Source of the DNA: Pseudomonadota bacterium
GTDB lineage: Bacteria; Desulfobacterota; Desulfobacteria; Desulfobacterales; RPRI01
DNA: 64,000 nt
Direction of reading: 5' to 3'
Assembly: GCA_043825875.1 (NCBI GenBank)
Contig: JBDRRF010000041.1
Span: 35,888-99,887 of the forward strand
Shown: positions 30,001-48,000 of the stretch, in pieces
Layout of the letters: every line of letters begins with the position of its first letter
Numbering within the stretch: the stretch's first letter is position 1
Position numbers: made by a program

Positions 30001-33000
30001 ACGGCTAATTATAGTTGGTGCTCGTAGTCTTTCTGAAATAAAACAGAAAGATGGATACCTGATCGCCAGCCATACGATCACAAAAGAAGCCGCGACCGTT
30101 CAGGAAAATGCGGGAATGAAGTTTGTTGGGAACTATGAGTGCATGCTTGATAATCTTCACTCTACCATATACGAGATTGGATTGAAATTTTATCTGAGAC
30201 CCAATGGGCCAGTAGGATGGATCATTGATCAGTTTAAGGAAGAAGTCTTGGTTAAAGAAAGGAAAAGACAAAACCAAAAGAAAATGTCACCGGCTCTTTC
30301 TGCTCAAGACCAGGACAAATTCAGCCGTCCCGGAAAAAATAATCACGCAATCGTTGATAAGTTTGTCACAATCGTTGATGGAAAAAAACGGGAAATCCAA
30401 GATGGTAAAACGCAATACATTAATTTACCAATGGTATCATGTAAAAATCAAAAATGTACTCTTTATGGTAAAACAGAAAAAGGTAATATTGTTTTTAATG
30501 GAACATACCGGACAAAGCAAGGAACGCCGGGTCGGAGATTTCTATGCAAAAAATGCGGTAAATCATTTTGCCACAGAACAGGGACCATCTTTTATGACCT
30601 CCGTTCTCCTGAAGAAAAGGTTATAAAGTCTCTTAGCCTTTTGCTAAAAGGAATGTCTTTACAAGGTGTAGCAGAATCTTTGGGTACCACCTACAGCACG
30701 GTTCGACGGTGGCTGGGCATTGCAACCAGACAGAGTAAAAAATTAGATGCGCTGCTTATAAAGGAATATAATGTGTCTCCTGCAGAATTAGCTTCTTTAT
30801 GGACTTTTGTCAAAACGAATTCTCCTCACCGAAGAGCGTTTCAAAGCGGGCGAAAAATAAATCCTATTCAACAACGAAATAGGGTAGAGCACATTAAATA
30901 AATGCCCCCCACTTTTCATAATATCCGGTCTGCAACTACTGCAATTCCATCCTATCTGTTGCGGGATAAACCCGCTGCTTCTCGGCTGTCTATCCTTAAT
31001 GCCCGTTTTGGTTGGCTCCGGGAATTCTTATTAATTTGTGCCGGGCGACCACTGCGTTCTTTTTCTATAAGACCTGTTACACCTTCATTATTTAGTCTCT
31101 GTATCCACTGCACCACAGTCCAGCGACTTACTTCGAAAAGTTCAGCTATCTGGCTACTGGTCCATCCATTCAGAACCAATAAACCAGCTGTAACACGAAT
31201 ACCCAGCCAGGTTTTTAGATCCTGTTGAGCCATTTCGAGAAGAGCTTTCTTTGTCACCGATTGATTGCTTATAGTTAATGCTTTCATTAAATTCTCCCGC
31301 TATCAATTTACGTATTGTAAAAGTTGTATTTGCTTTACTATACTTATTCTCTTTGATATGAATATATATGAGTGCTTACCGCATATGCACTCATACACAA
31401 ACAGAGCAAAAGCATAATAATGGCGTTAATCTTCTGTCAGACAGCCTTTTTTGCTGTTTCTTCCGCCAATTTCATTAAATCTTCACGGACTTCGGCATCG
31501 CCTACATTCATAACCTCGCATGCCCGGATCACCTGGTTATCACCAAATCCGTGCCAGTCGAAAAAAAACGCATATCTTTCAAAAACATCTTCAAACCGTT
31601 TTTCTTCGGGATGTCCCTGGGTTTGTATAAAAACCATTTTTTTACCGGGCTTGAGACGGCTACGGTAAGGATTACTTCCAAAATCCGGCACAAAATATGA
31701 AAATGTTCTATCAATAAATGCTTTGACCTGGCTTGAGACTTCACCATAATAGATCGGGGTGGCAATCACAAGAATATCACAATTTTGAACCTCATCCAGC
31801 ACTTCTGCCAGATCATCTTTCAGAACACATTTATCCAATTTCGTTTTGCAGGTCATGCATGCCTGACAACCACGGTATTGAAGCTTGTTTAAGGAAAAGG
31901 ATTTTACTTTGGCACCCAGTTTCTCAGCAGCTTCATTGAATCGCCTGGCAATAACAGTACTGTTTCCCTTGGGTCTGGGACTTCCGAACAGACAAACTAT
32001 TTTTTTTGACATTTTTTCTCCTATCTATCGATATATAATTATAATATTCGCAATCCGGTATCAGTTATTTCCATGTTTAGCAGGGCCAATAAGAGCGCTT
32101 TCGGAGCTGGATGGCACGTGCGCAAATATTCCGCCATCCACCGCGATAATCTCACCTGTAATAAAAGAAGCATCATCTGAAACAAGGAATGCAACCATAT
32201 TGGCGATATCTTCGGGCGTGCCCAGTCTCGGAGTAAGAGTATACTTTAACATCATTTCTTCCACTTCGGGCGTAATAGTAGCCTTTGCTGTTGCCGTAAG
32301 CATCAGCCCGGGACAAATAGCGTTGCAGCGTATACCCTGTTTGCCGTATTGAGTTGCAGCATACTTGGTAAGGGAGATAACCGCCGCCTTGGACACTCCA
32401 TAAGCTGTACGAGCCATGTCACCGGCCACACCGGCACCTGATGATGTATTTACTATCGCACCTCCACCACGCTTTATCATCTCAGGAATAGCATATTTGC
32501 AGGCAAGCATAGTTCCCCGGACTGTGATCTCCATAGCCCTGTCCCAGGTCGCAGCCTCCATATTTACTATGTCCCTGTCACCAGGGCCTGGCAGTGCTGC
32601 GGCATTGTTGTGCAATATGTCCAGACCGCCAAACTCGCTGACCGCCTTCTCAATCATAGCTTTGATTGCATCTTCGTTACGAAGATCCACATGGCAGGCC
32701 ACTGCTTCTCCTCCTTCACTCTTAATTTTAGCGACCAATCTTGCAACCGGTTCATCAACAATATCAGCGGCAACTACTTTAGCACCTTCTTTCGCCAACA
32801 ACATAGCTGTCGCACCTCCAATACTGTTGCCACCATCAACCAAATAAGCACCTGTAACAATTGCTACTTTACCGTTTAATTTTCCCATTGTTTTCTCCCT
32901 TATACAAAACCATTGTCATTGTTTACCTGCTTTACAGCGCCATCTGCAGGATCCCAGCCTCTTTCATTATAATATTCGGTCAGCAAGGCATCAAAGCTCT

Positions 33001-45000: not shown

Positions 45001-48000
45001 TCCGCCAAGACTGAAAAGCATGTAATAACTCATAGCCATGGCCGATATACCGGCAGGGTGCCCCATATCCCGTAAATAAATGACAGCATGGGCAATAAAG
45101 ATCATCATCGGTCCCACAAAGGCTAAGGAAGAAATAAAGAGCATCCAGAAGGTAAGAGTTTTTATCGCATCCATCGCTTTCCATTCTTCAGTGCTGCAAA
45201 ATACTTTTCCTGCTCCGGCTTTTTTAACACCGTCAGCCGGGGCAGGTTCCTCATGCTCATCTACACCATCCTGGAGTAATCCCATATCGGAGGGCTTGTT
45301 TTTTACAAAGAAAAACATCAAAATGAAGGAGAGCACCAGCAAGCCTGTAATGAAAAACCAGGCAACCCGCCAATCTCCGTTAACCGAAGAAATGATCTTA
45401 TTTAATAAGGGTGGAGCAATTAATCCACCCAGACTGCCTATCGTAACAGCAATGGACATAGCCAGCGCCTTTTTTTTCCTGAACCAAAAGGTAACTCCGG
45501 CCTGTACCGGTATCAAGCCGCCGAATCCGCAGCCGACTCCCACAATCACACCAAAAACGGCGATATAATGCCAGCCTTTGCTAACCACCGTGGCCATTAA
45601 GAAAGATCCGACTATCAGCAGCAGACAACCGAAAATCAATGTTAACCTGATCCCTTTTTTACCGATGCTATAACCAATAATCGGTGATATTAGCCCACTT
45701 AAGAGCCCACAAACGGTAAATCCGAGTCCAAGAGTGCCTCGCCCTAAATGAAGGGATTCGGCCATGTAAGTATTCATAACACTGGCCCCGATGAACGGGA
45801 AACCGGCATCTATCAAATAAATTATCCCCAAAACGGGAACCAGAATCCAACCGTAAAATATCTTATCTTTGGCCAAAGTATTCCTCCTTCTCAATTACTT
45901 TTCAATTTGCTTCTGCAAGATAAGTTTACTAGCCTGCATAGCCGAGTTGGCACCGATATCGGCAAACGTTCCATCAACTTCAACAGTATTGCCGACAAAA
46001 TAGAGTCCTTCAACTCCGGGTGCTTCTATAGGACTGCGGCGCATGGGCAGCCAGGTGTTGCCGGTTCCCCACACTTTTGGCCATTGGTAATTCTCCCATT
46101 CAATAATTTCGTCAAGATCCGAGTAGTAGCGGCGCATGTAATCCATCAGGGCGACCGCATCGGCTTTTGAAGATGCAAAATTACCGTGAACCTTAGTGGT
46201 TCCGTTGAGACACAATAAATGCTTGCCCTTTGGTGCGGCTTTTTTGGAACTAAGCGATGGAATACTCCAGCCAATGGTTTTATCAAAAAGAACCTGATTA
46301 TAGCCTATGTACTGATCGGTTTTTCCAGTAGCTCTTATAGTTGGCAGGCGACTGATGCCAATGTTTTTACACCAGAAATCACCTACGTACCCAGTTTCCA
46401 GCTTCCGCGCATTTTTAACCATATCTGCGGGAAAGAGGCTTTCATTGATAACACTGAGGATATCCCAGAAGGGTTCGGAATAAACAACCACAGGGGCTTG
46501 AAATTCCTGAACGATATTAATTTTATCCCGGGCTACAACACCGGTAATCTTTTTATCCTGTGTTGTTATCTCAACAGTTTCAAGTCCTGTCTTGATTTCA
46601 CCACCGTGCTTTCTTATGACCCTGGCATAAGCTTCAGCCAATCCTTGCAGACCGCCAACCTTGGAATCATTTATCCTGTATAGCCGTTGCGGATTTCTAA
46701 ACATCTGAATCCAGCGACCGGTTGAGGTTTCTTCAAGCGGCAAGGCAAGATGTACTATAGCCAGCCAGTAAATAGCTTTATCAAACGCTTCATCCCTGTC
46801 TTTAACAGTGGCCAGCCATTCTTTCATTGGAACATCTATCCATTTTTCAGGATCTTCCGCTGCCAATCTATTTAATATCCCCGTGACCTTGGTTGTCTGT
46901 TCGGGAGTAAGTTTAAGCACCTCAGTAAAAAATTTCTTTCCTCCCTCAGCATCCGCATCCATTCGCACAACTTTTCCATCTGAAACATTGTGCATCAGCA
47001 CCAGAGGATCGATCGGACCGACCCAGGCAACATCTGCACCGGCTTCTTTGGCTGCTTTAAGACCATATTGCCCTTTTTCCGTGATAATAACAAAATTGTC
47101 TTCAAAATCACTGGCATCACGGGGCCCCCATTCGAGCCAGTATCCGTTATAGTAAACAGCCCCTAAGCGTCCTCCTATCTGATCCGCTTTTTCTACTACC
47201 AAAACCTTGAGTCCGTTTTTTGCCAGAATTGCTCCGGAAATAAGACCGCTATATCCTGCACCAACCACAATAGCATCATACTTGACTACCTTTGCACCCA
47301 GCTTGGCTACCGACGATTTCATCTTTTTAGTTTCGGCCAAAACCGTACCGGAACTAAAAAGCAAAACAGCTATCACAACAAACGACCACCCCAGCCAATC
47401 TAATGCTCTTATCCATTTTGCTTTCATTCTTTTCTCCTTTTATAATTTAAAATATCATCTGTTGTTTAAACAAACACAGGTTTATATTTTACCGGTTGAA
47501 ATGCTCAATATACATCTGAAAGCTTTCTTCAGCGGGGAGGAAAACCGCGACTAACGCACAAGGTTTGAAAATAGCGGGGCAGAATCTGCTGATATTCAAG
47601 CAGGCTCAAGTCGCTGGCTTTGACATACTCACTTGCTTCTTCCAGCACTTTCTCCGGGTCCCCGGTTAAAAGATATTTTTTTACTTTATCCTCATGATGA
47701 ATGCCCATGGCCTCGGCAACAAGACTGATAGTATGCTTGATCTCAAAAGGGTATTGATTTTCATAGCCGCAGAAAGCAAGCTGGCAACCGGGACAGATCG
47801 TTGTCATAATATCAGCGCGCACAGCCATCGCTTCATTCAATCGGGCAATGTTTCTTTCAACCATCAAACCGGGAAAGTTGGCGTTGGCCTGAGCACCACA
47901 ACAAAGGCTATTTTCTCTGCTGTGCTCCATCTCTACTAGTGTCAGACCGGGTATTGCTTCAAGCAGTTTGCGTGGTATATCCCAGCTGCCCCTCTGTCGC

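Follow-up and report, generated by a model that had tools for sequence, protein, structure and literature searches.

The operon and its gene content

The locus lies in a window of 64,000 nt (the whole stretch of DNA analysed) on contig C41 of a Desulfobacterales genome that is 99.81% complete. Thirteen ORFs, all on the minus strand, span window positions 47427..31437; ORF limits and Pfam matches both agree with the thirteen-gene operon and the gene families described in the initial annotation. Neighbouring ORFs are set apart by gaps or overlaps of at most 145 bp, as computed from ORF coordinates. Co-directional genes run on upstream as far as 58934, so that 47427 is a provisional 5' limit. From upstream to downstream, the features are:

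45895..47427, minus strand: g01234, FAD flavoprotein, amine-oxidase/phytoene-desaturase-like (Pfam Amino_oxidase 6.8e-12, NAD_binding_8)
44578..45894, minus strand: g01233, MFS transporter (Pfam MFS_1 2.4e-36)
43455..44513, minus strand: g01232, AttH/CrtC-superfamily beta-barrel protein (weak Lipocalin_9, 20 bits against a cut-off of 26.2)
41155..43446, minus strand: g01231 (Mo1), bis-MGD enzyme lacking both a leader and a beta subunit (Pfam Molybdopterin and Molydop_binding)
40062..41120, minus strand: g01230, NAD(P)-dependent dehydrogenase (DAP_DH_C 1e-15, DapB_N)
39163..40029, minus strand: g01229, CCG-motif (HdrB/HdrD-like) protein (CCG 3.7e-06)
36827..39037, minus strand: g01228 (Mo2), Mo1 paralog sharing its features (Pfam Molybdopterin and Molydop_binding)
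36726..36826, minus strand: deletion scar, a 101-bp spacer at the site of a 363-aa 25-phosphosteroid lyase (25-PSL) family gene in relatives
35664..36725, minus strand: g01227 (K1), APH-fold kinase of the 25-hydroxysteroid-kinase-like (25-HSK-like) family (Pfam APH 1.3e-21)
35399..35629, minus strand: g01226, 2x[4Fe-4S] ferredoxin (Fer4 families, Cys motifs)
34825..35253, minus strand: g01225, SnoaL-like protein of NTF2 fold (SnoaL_2 25.8 bits, below the cut-off of 27, as in the initial annotation)
32900..34780, minus strand: g01224, aldehyde:ferredoxin oxidoreductase (AFOR_N 1.1e-62, AFOR_C 5e-67)
32061..32888, minus strand: g01223, short-chain dehydrogenase (SDR; adh_short_C2 2.9e-67)
31437..32012, minus strand: g01222, iron-sulfur flavoprotein (FMN_red 1.6e-20)

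Likely true starts are 43446 for Mo1, 39037 for Mo2, 40029 for the CCG protein, 44513 for the AttH-fold protein and 35629 for the ferredoxin. The flavoprotein g01234 begins with a hydrophobic segment (membrane anchor or signal), matches the NCBIfam CrtD/CrtI models in its dinucleotide fold alone, far below cut-off, and is 94-96% conserved in congeners G322 and G184. Lactate, oxalate-formate and bile-salt MFS models come nearest to g01233, all below cut-off. The dehydrogenase g01230 falls with DapB-like, 2,4-diaminopentanoate-dehydrogenase and native amine-dehydrogenase proteins (PDB 6g1h, 7.5e-27; NCBIfam Ord 136 bits, cut-off 400). The protein g01229 has a CCG and a CCK motif and lacks a ferredoxin domain. 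Full-length matches of g01224 to the aldehyde oxidoreductase (AOR) structures 9g7j (2.7e-75), 9mqx and 1aor, alongside a partial match to BamB 4z3w (4.2e-43), place it among the true AORs, with the tungsten type predicted from its family. Its partner is most likely the ferredoxin g01226, whose gene lies directly beside that of the AFOR in each of the three congeners with the operon and has a paralog paired with an AFOR gene on contig C76. The best NCBIfam model for g01223 is 7alpha-HSDH (218.9 bits, cut-off 450), and g01222 shows C-x2-C-x2-C-x6-C (Cys 49, 52, 55 and 62) within the FMN_red fold, a motif which we take to be the mark of iron-sulfur flavoproteins.

The kinase gene is present in three of 12 congeners (G322, G184 and G343), and all three are syntenic with the host at 76.5-98.4% identity, which bears out the core synteny previously reported and slightly widens its range of 78-97%. 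The order of 11 operon genes is kept in G322 and G184 (76-98% identity) and that of 8 of these in G343; it is kept as well in contigs of three metagenome runs (X2, X3 and X5). Gene content varies from relative to relative, some having and others lacking AttH, SnoaL, an additional SDR, an EthD protein or an EcKL kinase; in both congeners and metagenome contigs SnoaL and AttH fall outside the conserved core. Among the genomes compared, g01225 is found at this site only in the host; the site has no room for a SnoaL gene in the three congeners, and the X2, X3 and X5 contigs skip the region (628 nt).

The kinase and its deleted lyase partner

K1 matches the crystallised 25-HSK (PDB 9fsg) at 3.3e-41, reproducing the figure given before, with the CWGDARxGN and DWE motifs aligned; the gene is intact and its catalytic motifs are present. 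In the kinase tree K1 stands outside the clade of that enzyme, in another branch, and its placement assigns it to a family usually found beside a 25-PSL-type lyase rather than to the orthologues of crystallised 25-HSK. Kinase and lyase genes are adjacent for 9 of 11 kinase matches in five genomes of one betaproteobacterial family and in 21 of the 36 rows of the kinase tree, the latter count including two relabelled rows, one with a DUF7065-type neighbour and another in which a single gene intervenes. In G432, which encodes a near-identical counterpart of 9fsg, the sole lyase-family gene lies ~44 kb from the kinase gene. The SCP2-fused kinase homologues noted earlier were found again, at three loci in the order and one in Dehalococcoidia.

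The lyase partner could be recognised from 25-PSL structures released in 2026 (PDB 9fzn, 9g2i and 9g4c). Neighbours of the kinase paralogs include a group of 363-aa DUF7064/DUF7065 proteins (group B), whose predicted model (pLDDT 89.5) matches 9g4c and 9fzn at E 4.5e-29 and TM 0.86, and whose profile matches 9fzn_A over its full length at 5.7e-64. Their RDHSWG motif corresponds to RDRSWG of 9fzn_A; 9g4c reads RNRSWG there in the alignment. On profile and predicted structure, we assign the group-B proteins to the 25-PSL family. An intact 363-aa gene of this group sits between Mo2 and K1 in two of the three congener operons (G184 and G343). All three metagenome runs covering the locus have contigs that break at 36738 and 36767, with loose ends matching the G184 lyase region exactly, so that the insert is seen by its ends. 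Further to that, the G184 sequence before the lyase start aligns with the sequence before the kinase start in the host and in G322. Both of these genomes have lost precisely the lyase gene from the operon, in the host by a clean deletion.

No intact 25-PSL-family gene was found anywhere in the host genome; remnants of a lyase and a CrtC-like gene persist upstream of a second kinase on contig C89. With the lyase gene gone and no intact copy elsewhere, the cascade cannot run here unless another protein substitutes: the host pathway either stops at the phosphoester or relies on such a protein to finish.

The only candidate substitute in sight is g01232, to which the initial annotation had given the lyase step. 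We reject its identity as 25-PSL. Its model (pLDDT 83.6) retrieves kievitone hydratase (Foldseek 9.7e-11), AttH 2ich (TM 0.55-0.60) and 25-PSL (8.4e-9), the last with a TM of 0.45 against 0.86 for the true family, a likeness at the level of the superfamily fold; the RDxSWG motif was not found in it, and it is one of 14 paralogous AttH loci in the genome. The two-barrel AttH fold is common to g01232, the lyase family, the AttH-like hydratases (CrtC, kievitone hydratase, archaeal Hgs) and a 330-aa CrtC-like protein that adjoins the kinase paralogs K2 and K3 (Atlas structure TM 0.80-0.86; Pfam CrtC 21 bits, cut-off 22.5). From the solved members of this fold g01232 is about equally far (TM 0.45-0.60), and it has neither a Pfam match above cut-off nor the lyase motif. 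As reported before, the AttH gene is missing from two syntenic congeners (G322 and G184); it is also absent at the locus in runs X2 and X3, reduced to an 84-aa fragment in G343 and covered in X5, a relative that appears to have both AttH and lyase.

The molybdenum enzymes

Mo1 and Mo2 share 53% identity over 732-740 aa, and Mo1 has its best PDB match in 5e7o (1.6e-63), followed by 2e7z (1.9e-56) and 2ivf (3.7e-54), all as previously given. Both are single subunits without beta and gamma partners, as the initial annotation held, and a twin-arginine leader was found in neither, in keeping with homologues that begin ~10 residues before the first Cys. The Asp of a GLGD motif in Mo1, invariant in 14 homologues, aligns with the Mo-ligand-Asp region of PcrA and EbdA, whereas a Gly occupies the column of the acetylene hydratase ligand Cys, with the Asp three columns on; here the ligand residue numbers of the three reference enzymes are our assumption. 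The tree places both proteins in an uncharacterised leaderless clade with a predicted Asp ligand and no beta subunit.

With the type-II hydroxylases (EbdA, steroid C25 dehydrogenase) the two share the aligned Asp and an N-terminal cluster motif spaced x3/x3, C-x3-D-x3-C...C, but the middle Cys of that motif is Asp, the proteins measure ~740 aa instead of 900-1000, and Tat leader, beta and gamma subunits are absent. The type-II alpha model (TIGR03479) is the best family-level model for Mo1, yet scores of 365 and 378 bits for the pair fall far below its cut-off of 984.75. The EbdA segment HAGS, which presumably holds the residue proposed to act in catalysis, stands opposite unrelated residues in the printed alignment. 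The pair fails most defining features of S25DH-type enzymes, the Asp ligand and cluster-motif spacing excepted. Acetylene hydratase, which carries a single [4Fe-4S] cluster, resembles Mo1 in being a one-subunit bis-MGD enzyme of the cytoplasm with one N-terminal cluster motif, but differs in motif spacing as well as in the ligand column.

A sister clade consists of alpha-beta enzymes with a short 193-aa Fer4_11 beta subunit. One member, in a Dehalococcoidia genome (G868:C82), is encoded in one direction and followed in turn by its beta subunit, two lyases, a Fer4 protein and a kinase::SCP2 fusion, an independent linkage of the Mo family with lyase and kinase. Within the flanks examined outside the genus, Mo-lyase linkage occurs at one of 21 Dehalococcoidia loci; at 7 further loci from the order, which hold 8 genes of the family, it was not seen. 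Stand-alone members of the beta-less clade in Dehalococcoidia have generic gene contexts, so that the clade need not be tied to the pathway.

Possible functions of the operon

By analogy with the side-chain activation of cholesterol in Sterolibacterium (PMC7411048, PMC8449060 and PMC11061730), the operon most likely serves to activate a branched (isoprenoid-type) alkyl end without oxygen. That the locus represents one copy of a catabolic operon found genus-wide and working to this end entirely in the cytoplasm we put forward tentatively, at slightly less than even confidence. Its complete form would combine the two paralogous Asp-type bis-MGD enzymes, an ATP-dependent alcohol-dehydration pair (25-HSK-like kinase and 25-PSL-family protein), an oxidation branch of SDR and tungsten-type AOR with its ferredoxin, and accessory redox proteins plus a transporter. 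A tertiary alcohol would arise from Mo1 and water, or from an alkene via an AttH-type hydratase; the kinase would phosphorylate it, the lyase would eliminate phosphate to leave an alkene, Mo2 would hydroxylate the allylic methyl group, and SDR and AOR would take the alcohol to the acid. Of the Sterolibacterium-like cascade proposed initially, the dehydration step is strengthened by the lyase genes in G184 and G343, and the idea gains support at genus level; the host copy is incomplete. Gene content, synteny, the families of kinase, lyase and AOR and the tie between kinase and lyase are observed; C-H hydroxylation by Mo1 and Mo2, the electron acceptor and the substrate we infer.

Unlikely, but next in order, is management of double bonds and alcohols without C-H hydroxylation: AttH/CrtC hydratases would make tertiary alcohols, kinase and lyase would re-eliminate them with a shift of the double bond, the Mo enzymes would, e.g., hydrate a substrate as stand-alone acetylene hydratase does, dehydrogenate an alcohol or carry out a reduction, and SDR and AOR would oxidise the resulting alcohol or aldehyde. 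Characterised AttH-fold hydratases, a group to which Hgs, the archaeal hydroxy-GDGT synthase, belongs, convert isoprene double bonds into tertiary alcohols and back (bioRxiv 10.1101/2025.10.20.683597). Such genes accompany the kinases here and beside K2 and K3, in line with the many AttH paralogs of the host and the apparent pairing of AttH with lyase in X5; the stand-alone Mo enzymes, with their acetylene hydratase match and single cluster motif, have no dedicated electron-transfer subunit that we could find. Against this stand the Gly and Asp of the ligand region, the absence of AttH from most operon variants, and the futility of hydration followed by ATP-driven dehydration unless the regiochemistry differs.

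It is rather improbable that the locus is a mosaic serving no single pathway, in which recurrent modules (AFOR, ferredoxin, SDR, CCG, DapB-like and AttH) adjoin an unrelated Mo pair and a relic kinase from a decayed kinase-lyase unit. The modules do recur: AFOR at at least 11 loci, AttH as counted above, and CCG in four copies on C41, where the three paralogs of g01229 are 49-66% identical to it. Two of these (C41:19621-20502 and 26630-27517) have AFOR and AttH genes <1 kb away, and the third (51509-52372; window 15616-16482) has SDR genes on both sides and an AFOR ~3.5 kb off; DapB-like and ferredoxin paralogs also adjoin other AFOR genes, that of g01230 on C11 together with an SDR gene. Variable gene content, the lyase deletion and the C89 remnants fit as well. 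The conserved order in congeners and in three metagenome runs, the tight spacing, the intact K1 and the renewed meeting of Mo, lyase and kinase genes in another phylum speak against a mosaic.

More improbable still, the Mo enzymes would be cytoplasmic reductases acting on, e.g., S-oxides, N-oxides or some other oxide or oxyanion, drawing electrons from ferredoxin or the iron-sulfur flavoprotein and having no functional tie to the kinase: Asp-ligated relatives include reductases, the best PDB match 5e7o is a type-II reductase subunit, NCBIfam dmsA_ynfE scores the pair as high (327-380 bits) as the type-II model, and the operon encodes low-potential donors, but alpha-beta family members lie near long acyl-CoA dehydrogenases (3/7 loci), CoA ligases (2/7) and SDRs (3/7), and the Dehalococcoidia member adjoins lyase and kinase genes, neighbourhoods that point to carbon-chain metabolism.

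The host encodes a DsrA scoring above the family cut-off and is a sulfate-reducing groundwater bacterium, not a denitrifier like Sterolibacterium denitrificans; sulfate reducers are not known to have high-potential acceptors of the kind on which S25DH-type enzymes depend, which counts against the favoured reading. The activation proposed here would differ from the S. denitrificans set (S25DH, 25-HSK, 25-PSL, S26DH and a C26 aldehyde dehydrogenase) in several respects. Both systems have a paralogous pair of enzymes from the DMSO reductase family, a 9fsg-homologous kinase of APH fold, a 9fzn-family lyase (here in the complete operon form) and alcohol/aldehyde oxidation. The Sterolibacterium Mo enzymes are described in PMC7411048 as periplasmic alpha-beta-gamma complexes with Tat leader and heme b, in contrast to the leaderless single subunits of another clade found here; near its kinase gene there is no candidate for a lyase gene (PMC8449060), whereas the complete operon puts all genes together. 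Aldehyde oxidation would be ferredoxin-linked through the AOR instead of NAD-dependent, and K1 occupies a different branch from the crystallised 25-HSK. What the relatives' operons add to the initial annotation is the lyase family itself, borne by a gene other than g01232. The operon may be an all-cytoplasmic look-alike of the denitrifiers' oxygen-free attack on the branched tail of cholesterol, one whose lyase has been lost in this host.

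Operon layout and genomic setting

The minus-strand operon of the initial annotation (47427 to 31437) was confirmed as 13 head-to-tail ORFs, with gaps or overlaps of at most 145 bp between neighbors. Pfam agreed with the gene families listed there, including a weak Lipocalin_9 match on the AttH-fold protein g01232, and returned the same score for the SnoaL-like protein g01225 (SnoaL_2, 25.8 bits against a cut-off of 27). Also reproduced were the match of the 25-hydroxysteroid-kinase-like (25-HSK-like) kinase g01227, hereafter K1, to PDB 9fsg (3.3e-41), the matches of the molybdopterin enzyme g01231 (Mo1) to 5e7o (1.6e-63), acetylene hydratase (1.9e-56) and ethylbenzene dehydrogenase alpha, EbdA (3.7e-54), and the 53% identity between Mo1 and its paralog g01228 (Mo2). 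The predicted ORFs exceed the true gene lengths, as alignments with orthologs and homologues begin at Met18 in Mo1 and near Met36 in Mo2.

The genome assembly (4.77 Mb, 99.81% complete) encodes DsrA, scoring above the family cut-off. The contig carrying the operon, C41, of which the window covers 35888-99887, forms a catabolic island. On it are found two sets of MMPL, DUF1329, DUF1302 and BNR-repeat genes, which look like uptake systems for hydrophobic substrates, together with old-yellow-enzyme-type and fumarate-reductase-like flavoproteins and many short-chain dehydrogenases (SDRs), and genes for aldehyde:ferredoxin oxidoreductases (AFOR), HdrD-like CCG proteins and AttH-like proteins are repeated along it.

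Features of the window surrounding the operon, and AttH-like genes in the window
926-2035: AttH-like gene
2414-9163: first of two paralogous BNR-repeat/MMPL/DUF1329/DUF1302 sets, adjoining AttH, AFOR and SDR genes
12115-13719, plus strand: first of two paralogous HTH_3 regulators (534-537 aa), on the strand opposite to the adjacent catabolic gene string
21914-28583: second BNR-repeat/MMPL/DUF1329/DUF1302 set, likewise adjoining AttH, AFOR and SDR genes
29288-30901, plus strand: second HTH_3 regulator, also opposite to the adjacent catabolic string
43455-44549: AttH-like gene
47529-58934, minus strand: block co-directional with the operon (HdrD-like CCG protein, [2Fe-2S] and FAD subunits, PAS-LuxR regulator, two xanthine-dehydrogenase-family large subunits, two HGD-D/double-cubane-like proteins)
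62716-63792: AttH-like gene

Genes on the same strand continue upstream of the operon as far as 58934. The transcription unit may thus start further 5′, and the upstream block and the operon may be a single long unit. The two xanthine-dehydrogenase-family subunits of this block are 63% identical to each other, their nearest NCBIfam model is 4-hydroxybenzoyl-CoA reductase alpha (575 bits against a cut-off of 995), and the gene XDH776 is syntenic in two congeners, G322 and G184. Scans of the operon boundaries for the sigma-54 consensus (28 matches against 36.5 expected) and for sigma-70 promoters and terminators stayed at chance level, and the RNA run X21 placed only eight short pieces on the locus, at <95% identity. 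The regulator at 29288-30901 lies just 3′ of the operon and has a counterpart of 92% identity in G322.

Kinase-lyase pairs and loss of the lyase gene

Beside kinase paralogs in other genomes we first saw a family of 363-aa proteins (G322:C34, G352:C50, G034:C199), with a 331-aa DUF7065 form at G034:C241. The family comprises 107 database clusters, none named and some annotated with DUF7064 or DUF7065. A structural model built from 31 sequences (pLDDT 89.5) had as its best Foldseek matches 9g4c, 9fzn and 9g2i (E 4.5e-29, TM 0.83-0.86), entries released in January 2026 under the PDB title 25-phosphosteroid lyase; AttH NE1406, kievitone hydratase and fungal Diels-Alderases followed. The family profile matched 9fzn_A over its full length (5.7e-64), and its invariant RDHSWG corresponds in the alignment to RDRSWG of the structure and to RNRSWG of the 9g4c entry, which contains phosphate and product; RDxSWG was present in all seven family members checked. 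The 363-aa protein is thus a homologue of 25-phosphosteroid lyase (25-PSL). Among 1.84 billion representative proteins, the family extends to 418 clusters at E ≤1e-30 and 2375 at E ≤0.001. In excerpts of PMC8449060 and PMC11061730 the lyase gene is termed unknown or putative. Our literature search returned no paper on the distribution of the family or on an operon of this kind; the publication belonging to the PDB entries of 2026, which lies outside that search, may already cover part of this. A 797-aa protein, P0262, considered as a kinase-lyase fusion of the Rosetta stone type, proved instead to combine a P450 (Pfam p450, 2.6e-27) with a lyase-family domain at its C terminus (residues 424-790) and so to couple a hydroxylase to the lyase fold.

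K1 scores 77.9 bits against the APH model (cut-off 23.2), and its catalytic motifs CWGDARxGN and DWE align with 9fsg; further PDB matches are Rv3168 (3ats, 8.1e-37) and the kinase domain of ACAD11 (8.6e-18). Following the initial annotation we take 9fsg, deposited as an 'aminoglycoside phosphotransferase-like protein', to be 25-HSK, which fits the literature and the neighboring entry numbers of the lyase. Kinase homologues (E ≤1e-30) occur in 13 of 251 genomes of a betaproteobacterial family (listed as Sterolibacteriaceae; the locus by which the family was selected is titled Sulfuritalea), and in five of these genomes 9 of 11 kinase genes stand directly beside a lyase-family gene. The kinase of one genome, G432, matches 9fsg with 765 bits over 329 aa, and the single lyase-family gene there lies ~44 kb away, in agreement with the 2021 statement, in an excerpt of PMC8449060, that no candidate lyase is found near the 25-HSK gene.

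Kinase phylogeny (37 sequences) separates the 9fsg/G432 clade from the clade of K1 by a branch supported at 95%; K1 is 30-33% identical to the former clade. Lyase adjacency occurs on both sides of this branch, in 21 of 36 labeled rows if two relabeled ones are included (one with a DUF7065-type neighbor, one with a gene in between). The K1 clade itself (nine rows, 100% support) contains two further kinases of the same lineage of paralogs, K2 and K3, as well as a kinase from a betaproteobacterium at 56% identity, and five of its rows are lyase-adjacent. Judged by tree position and adjacency, K1 thus belongs to a lyase-coupled kinase family without being the orthologue of the crystallized, characterized kinase.

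Among 401 genomes of the order, six encode a K1-type kinase (E ≤1e-60), namely the genome of the window, three of 12 congeners and two members of another family. In G322 and G184, eleven genes are kept in the same order at 76.5-98.4% identity (flavoprotein, MFS transporter, Mo1, DapB-like dehydrogenase, CCG protein, Mo2, kinase, ferredoxin, AFOR, SDR and iron-sulfur flavoprotein), and a third congener, G343, retains eight of them at 78.5-93.2%. None of the three operons contains the SnoaL gene; the AttH gene is missing from two of them, and G343 has an 84-aa fragment. A family profile search located an intact lyase-family gene between Mo2 and the kinase of two congeners, at L017:7258-8349 in G184 and at L018:11084-12175 in G343, and none at this place in G322 or the genome of the window. 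The sequence standing 5′ of the lyase start in G184 stands 5′ of the kinase start in the latter two genomes. According to this alignment, the lyase ORF was excised between two ribosome-binding-site-like repeats, at the identical place in both. Between Mo2 and the lyase gene of G184 (L017:8350-8593) there is also a piece of ~130 bp with inverted-repeat ends, and similar ends occur near the operon in G322 (L016:486-515 and 19599-19628); the piece may be a small repeated element.

The same gene order was seen in metagenome contigs mapped at ≥85% identity, from three runs of three studies, two labeled groundwater (X2, X3) and one coal (X5). Contigs of all three runs span the whole operon and skip SnoaL. 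All three are interrupted at 36738 and 36767, and the loose ends there agree with the lyase region of G184 letter for letter. The AttH gene is skipped in X2 and X3 and covered by an X5 contig. Between the SDR and the iron-sulfur flavoprotein (window 32048-32054), X2 and X3 carry 1143 extra nt; this additional ~1.1 kb corresponds to the 371-aa ecdysteroid-kinase-like (EcKL, 52 bits) gene of G184 (L017:2020-3135) and G343 (L018:15404-16549), which follows the SDR in the former and comes immediately behind the AFOR in the latter. Downstream of the AFOR, G343 gave no SDR or flavoprotein match; it additionally encodes a protein with two EthD domains and an extra SDR. The full form of the operon is flavoprotein, MFS transporter, (AttH), Mo1, DapB-like, CCG, Mo2, lyase, kinase, ferredoxin, AFOR, SDR, (EcKL kinase), iron-sulfur flavoprotein. 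It follows from the comparison, in which congeners and metagenome relatives are kin rather than independent samples, that the complete form includes the lyase and that the copy in the window is a reduced derivative. The genome sets are samples drawn from larger groups, and absences apply to the genomes searched. Over window 31400-47500 the contigs of the X5 relative have a mean word depth of ~400, compared with 11-18 in the two groundwater runs; this measure does not equal a share of cells and serves as a pointer at most to where the organism may be sought.

K1 orthologues in G184 and G343 have their lyase partner, whereas a search of the whole genome of the window found no intact lyase gene anywhere; its sole trace, a 43-aa remnant, lies on contig C89 upstream of a second kinase paralog, in what is a rearranged kinase-lyase locus.

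Second kinase locus in the genome of the window
C89:11871-14196 (L005): kinase paralog (64% identical) after two amine-oxidase-like flavoproteins; upstream of it, pieces of a CrtC-like 330-aa gene (25 aa) and of the lyase gene (43-58 aa); downstream, an intact CrtC-like 330-aa gene

The 330-aa protein found beside K2 and K3 is CrtC-like.

In this genome, the phosphoester that K1 would make thus lacks a lyase of its own. The step may be taken over by g01232 or a different AttH paralog; otherwise the operon copy is heading for decay. The initial annotation had assigned the lyase step to g01232, and the fold superfamily it invoked holds up: a model from six paralogs (pLDDT 83.6) has the AttH fold with two lipocalin-like barrel domains, and Foldseek ranks 1-27 are all AttH-fold proteins (E ≤5.2e-08, probability 1.00), followed by a drop to E 7e-05 and probability ≤0.38. 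Among the matches are kievitone hydratase (9.7e-11), NE1406 (TM 0.55-0.60) and Diels-Alderases (TM 0.5-0.6). The assignment of this particular gene to the 25-PSL family does not stand. Against 25-PSL structures the g01232 model reaches 8.4e-9 and TM 0.44-0.48, compared with TM 0.83-0.86 for the 363-aa family, its sequence has no match at E ≤1 to PDB chains of that family, and RDxSWG is absent from g01232 and five other AttH paralogs (six of the 14 were checked). Plain BLAST and small-profile hhalign comparisons with the lyase family were weak (AttH-paralog profile against lyase-family profile: probability 31%, E 5e-4), so that the shared superfamily is visible only by fold comparison. AttH-like genes occur at 14 loci of the genome (32-58% identity), the three listed above and 11 further ones, with six on C41, and many adjoin AFOR and CCG genes in a recurring module. 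A role of g01232 as a hydratase feeding or paralleling the kinase is plausible by analogy, since characterized AttH-like enzymes, as described in bioRxiv 10.1101/2025.10.20.683597, add water to an isoprene double bond to give a tertiary alcohol. The X5 relative appears to have both AttH and lyase genes, so the two are not simple alternatives.

Molybdenum enzymes and electron carriers

Mo1 and Mo2 have no twin-arginine leader: there is no RR, and the ~ten residues before the first cysteine leave no room for one. In HMMER alignments the Asp of their GLGD motif falls on YGD in PcrA and on IGD in EbdA, and the column of the ligand cysteine of acetylene hydratase holds Gly; the ligand residues of the three reference enzymes are those we take to bind molybdenum. 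This Asp (D144) is invariant across 14 homologues, and Mo1 and Mo2 would accordingly share the Asp ligand by which type-II alpha subunits are recognized. The N-terminal cluster motif has type-II spacing, reading C-x3-D-x3-C in Mo1, Mo2 and some relatives and C-x3-C-x3/4-C in others. Neither protein reaches any curated NCBIfam model; TIGR03479, whose cut-off is 984.75 bits, gives them 365.2 and 378.2, and their dmsA_ynfE scores are similar. The operon has no beta gene, and the closest match in the genome, 29% identical, adjoins another molybdenum enzyme.

The family comprises >120 database clusters at ≥44% identity, ~735-745 aa long and none of them named; in the few cases where a source is stated, it is Chloroflexota/Dehalococcoidia, 'Proteobacteria bacterium' or Thermodesulfobacteriota. 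A pattern search of genome contigs with the Mo alignment was unspecific (3 of 78 loci belonged to the family), and the family was traced by genome searches instead. A 193-aa Fer4_11 beta gene directly follows the Mo gene at three of three distant loci and for all eight family genes in seven other genomes of the order. In a family tree built without the characterized references S25DH, S26DH, EbdA, PcrA and acetylene hydratase, 12 metagenome proteins group with the Mo1 and Mo2 clades at 100% support, and all 11 alpha-beta loci fall outside this group. Dehalococcoidia, where 15 of 301 genomes have the family, follow the same division: no beta gene lies within 1.5 kb at the ten loci of ≥51% identity, whereas one is present at all 11 loci of 44-50%. 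Therefore, the beta-less state is an old trait of the clade, and the split between Mo1 and Mo2 predates the genus.

The neighbors of the alpha-beta members point to carbon-chain metabolism, with long acyl-CoA dehydrogenases at three of seven loci, SDRs at three, CoA ligases at two and MBL-fold/alkylsulfatase-like hydrolases at two; in Dehalococcoidia, old-yellow-enzyme, FAD_binding_2 and 3beta-HSD-like genes are found. The conserved neighbors of beta-less Dehalococcoidia members are beta-CASP hydrolases (four of eight loci) rather than redox partners. One Dehalococcoidia genome, G868, combines an alpha-beta member, 48% identical to Mo2, with two lyase-family genes that both carry RDHSWG.

Dehalococcoidia gene cluster
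G868:C82:40000-57634 (L198): PAS sensor kinase/regulator, then, all in one direction, Mo alpha, beta, two lyase genes, 328-aa Fer4 protein, kinase::SCP2 fusion

Kinase homologues (43-44% identity) are present in both Dehalococcoidia genomes that were first found via the Mo family. Linkage of Mo and lyase genes is not general, being seen within the examined flanks at 1 of 21 Dehalococcoidia loci and for none of eight family genes at seven other loci of the order.

Several other operon proteins belong to multi-copy families. AFOR genes occupy at least 11 loci of the genome, the 308-aa CCG protein has four copies on C41, a DapB-like paralog on C11 adjoins AFOR and SDR genes, and a paralog of the 98-aa ferredoxin on C76 adjoins the closest AFOR paralog. 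The operon-specific parts are the two Mo enzymes, the kinase, the flavoprotein, the MFS transporter and the iron-sulfur flavoprotein. Because of the ferredoxin-AFOR pair on C76 and the adjacency of the two genes in the congeners, the ferredoxin g01226 was assigned to the aldehyde oxidoreductase (AOR) g01224 and rejected as partner of the Mo enzymes. g01224 has AFOR_N and AFOR_C domains and full-length similarity to solved AORs, its metal (tungsten or molybdenum) not being distinguishable by sequence; a BamB-type reductase was dismissed in favor of the true AORs, whose matches are stronger and extend along the entire protein. We found no support for the CCG and DapB-like proteins as stand-ins for the absent beta subunit: two of three CCG paralogs and the DapB-like paralog adjoin AFOR modules without Mo genes.

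A possible route into saturated isoprenoid chains

We tentatively suggest, at slightly less than even confidence, that the operon is a cytoplasmic analogue of the cholesterol side-chain cascade of Sterolibacterium denitrificans, acting on a branched alkyl end. We infer C-H hydroxylation by Mo1 and Mo2, as well as the step order, the acceptor and the substrate. Hints of a steroid, all weak, come from the fusions to SCP2, an SDR whose closest model is 7alpha-HSDH with a score under the cut-off, the EcKL kinase of relatives and the steroid-type neighbors in Dehalococcoidia; non-steroidal isoprenoids fit equally well. A broader proposal, which we regard as rather unlikely, is that sulfate reducers and Dehalococcoidia living as strict anaerobes in the subsurface perform an all-cytoplasmic, water-dependent oxidation of the saturated isoprenoid methyl end. 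Single-subunit, Asp-ligated bis-MGD enzymes of an uncharacterized clade would then carry out both C-H hydroxylations, with the kinase-lyase pair forming the intervening alkene and a tungsten AOR handing the final electrons to ferredoxin. If true, it would provide an enzymatic route into pristane- or phytane-like chains, sterol or hopanoid side chains, or archaeal lipids without nitrate.

To our knowledge, most work on the O2-free oxidation of unactivated methyl groups through tertiary phosphoesters comes from a single denitrifier. According to PMC11061730, anaerobic growth on sterols is known for only a few strains, in every case under denitrifying conditions. The locus and its fuller relatives bring kinase, lyase, two candidate hydroxylases and an aldehyde step together in one operon, in a host with DsrA. 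These relatives occur in groundwater- and coal-labeled runs and provide a defined gene set for expression and assay. The kinase-lyase pair emerges as a widespread two-gene module, and a beta-less Mo clade without known function is delimited. Together, this bears on the breakdown of saturated isoprenoid chains under sulfidic or methanogenic conditions.
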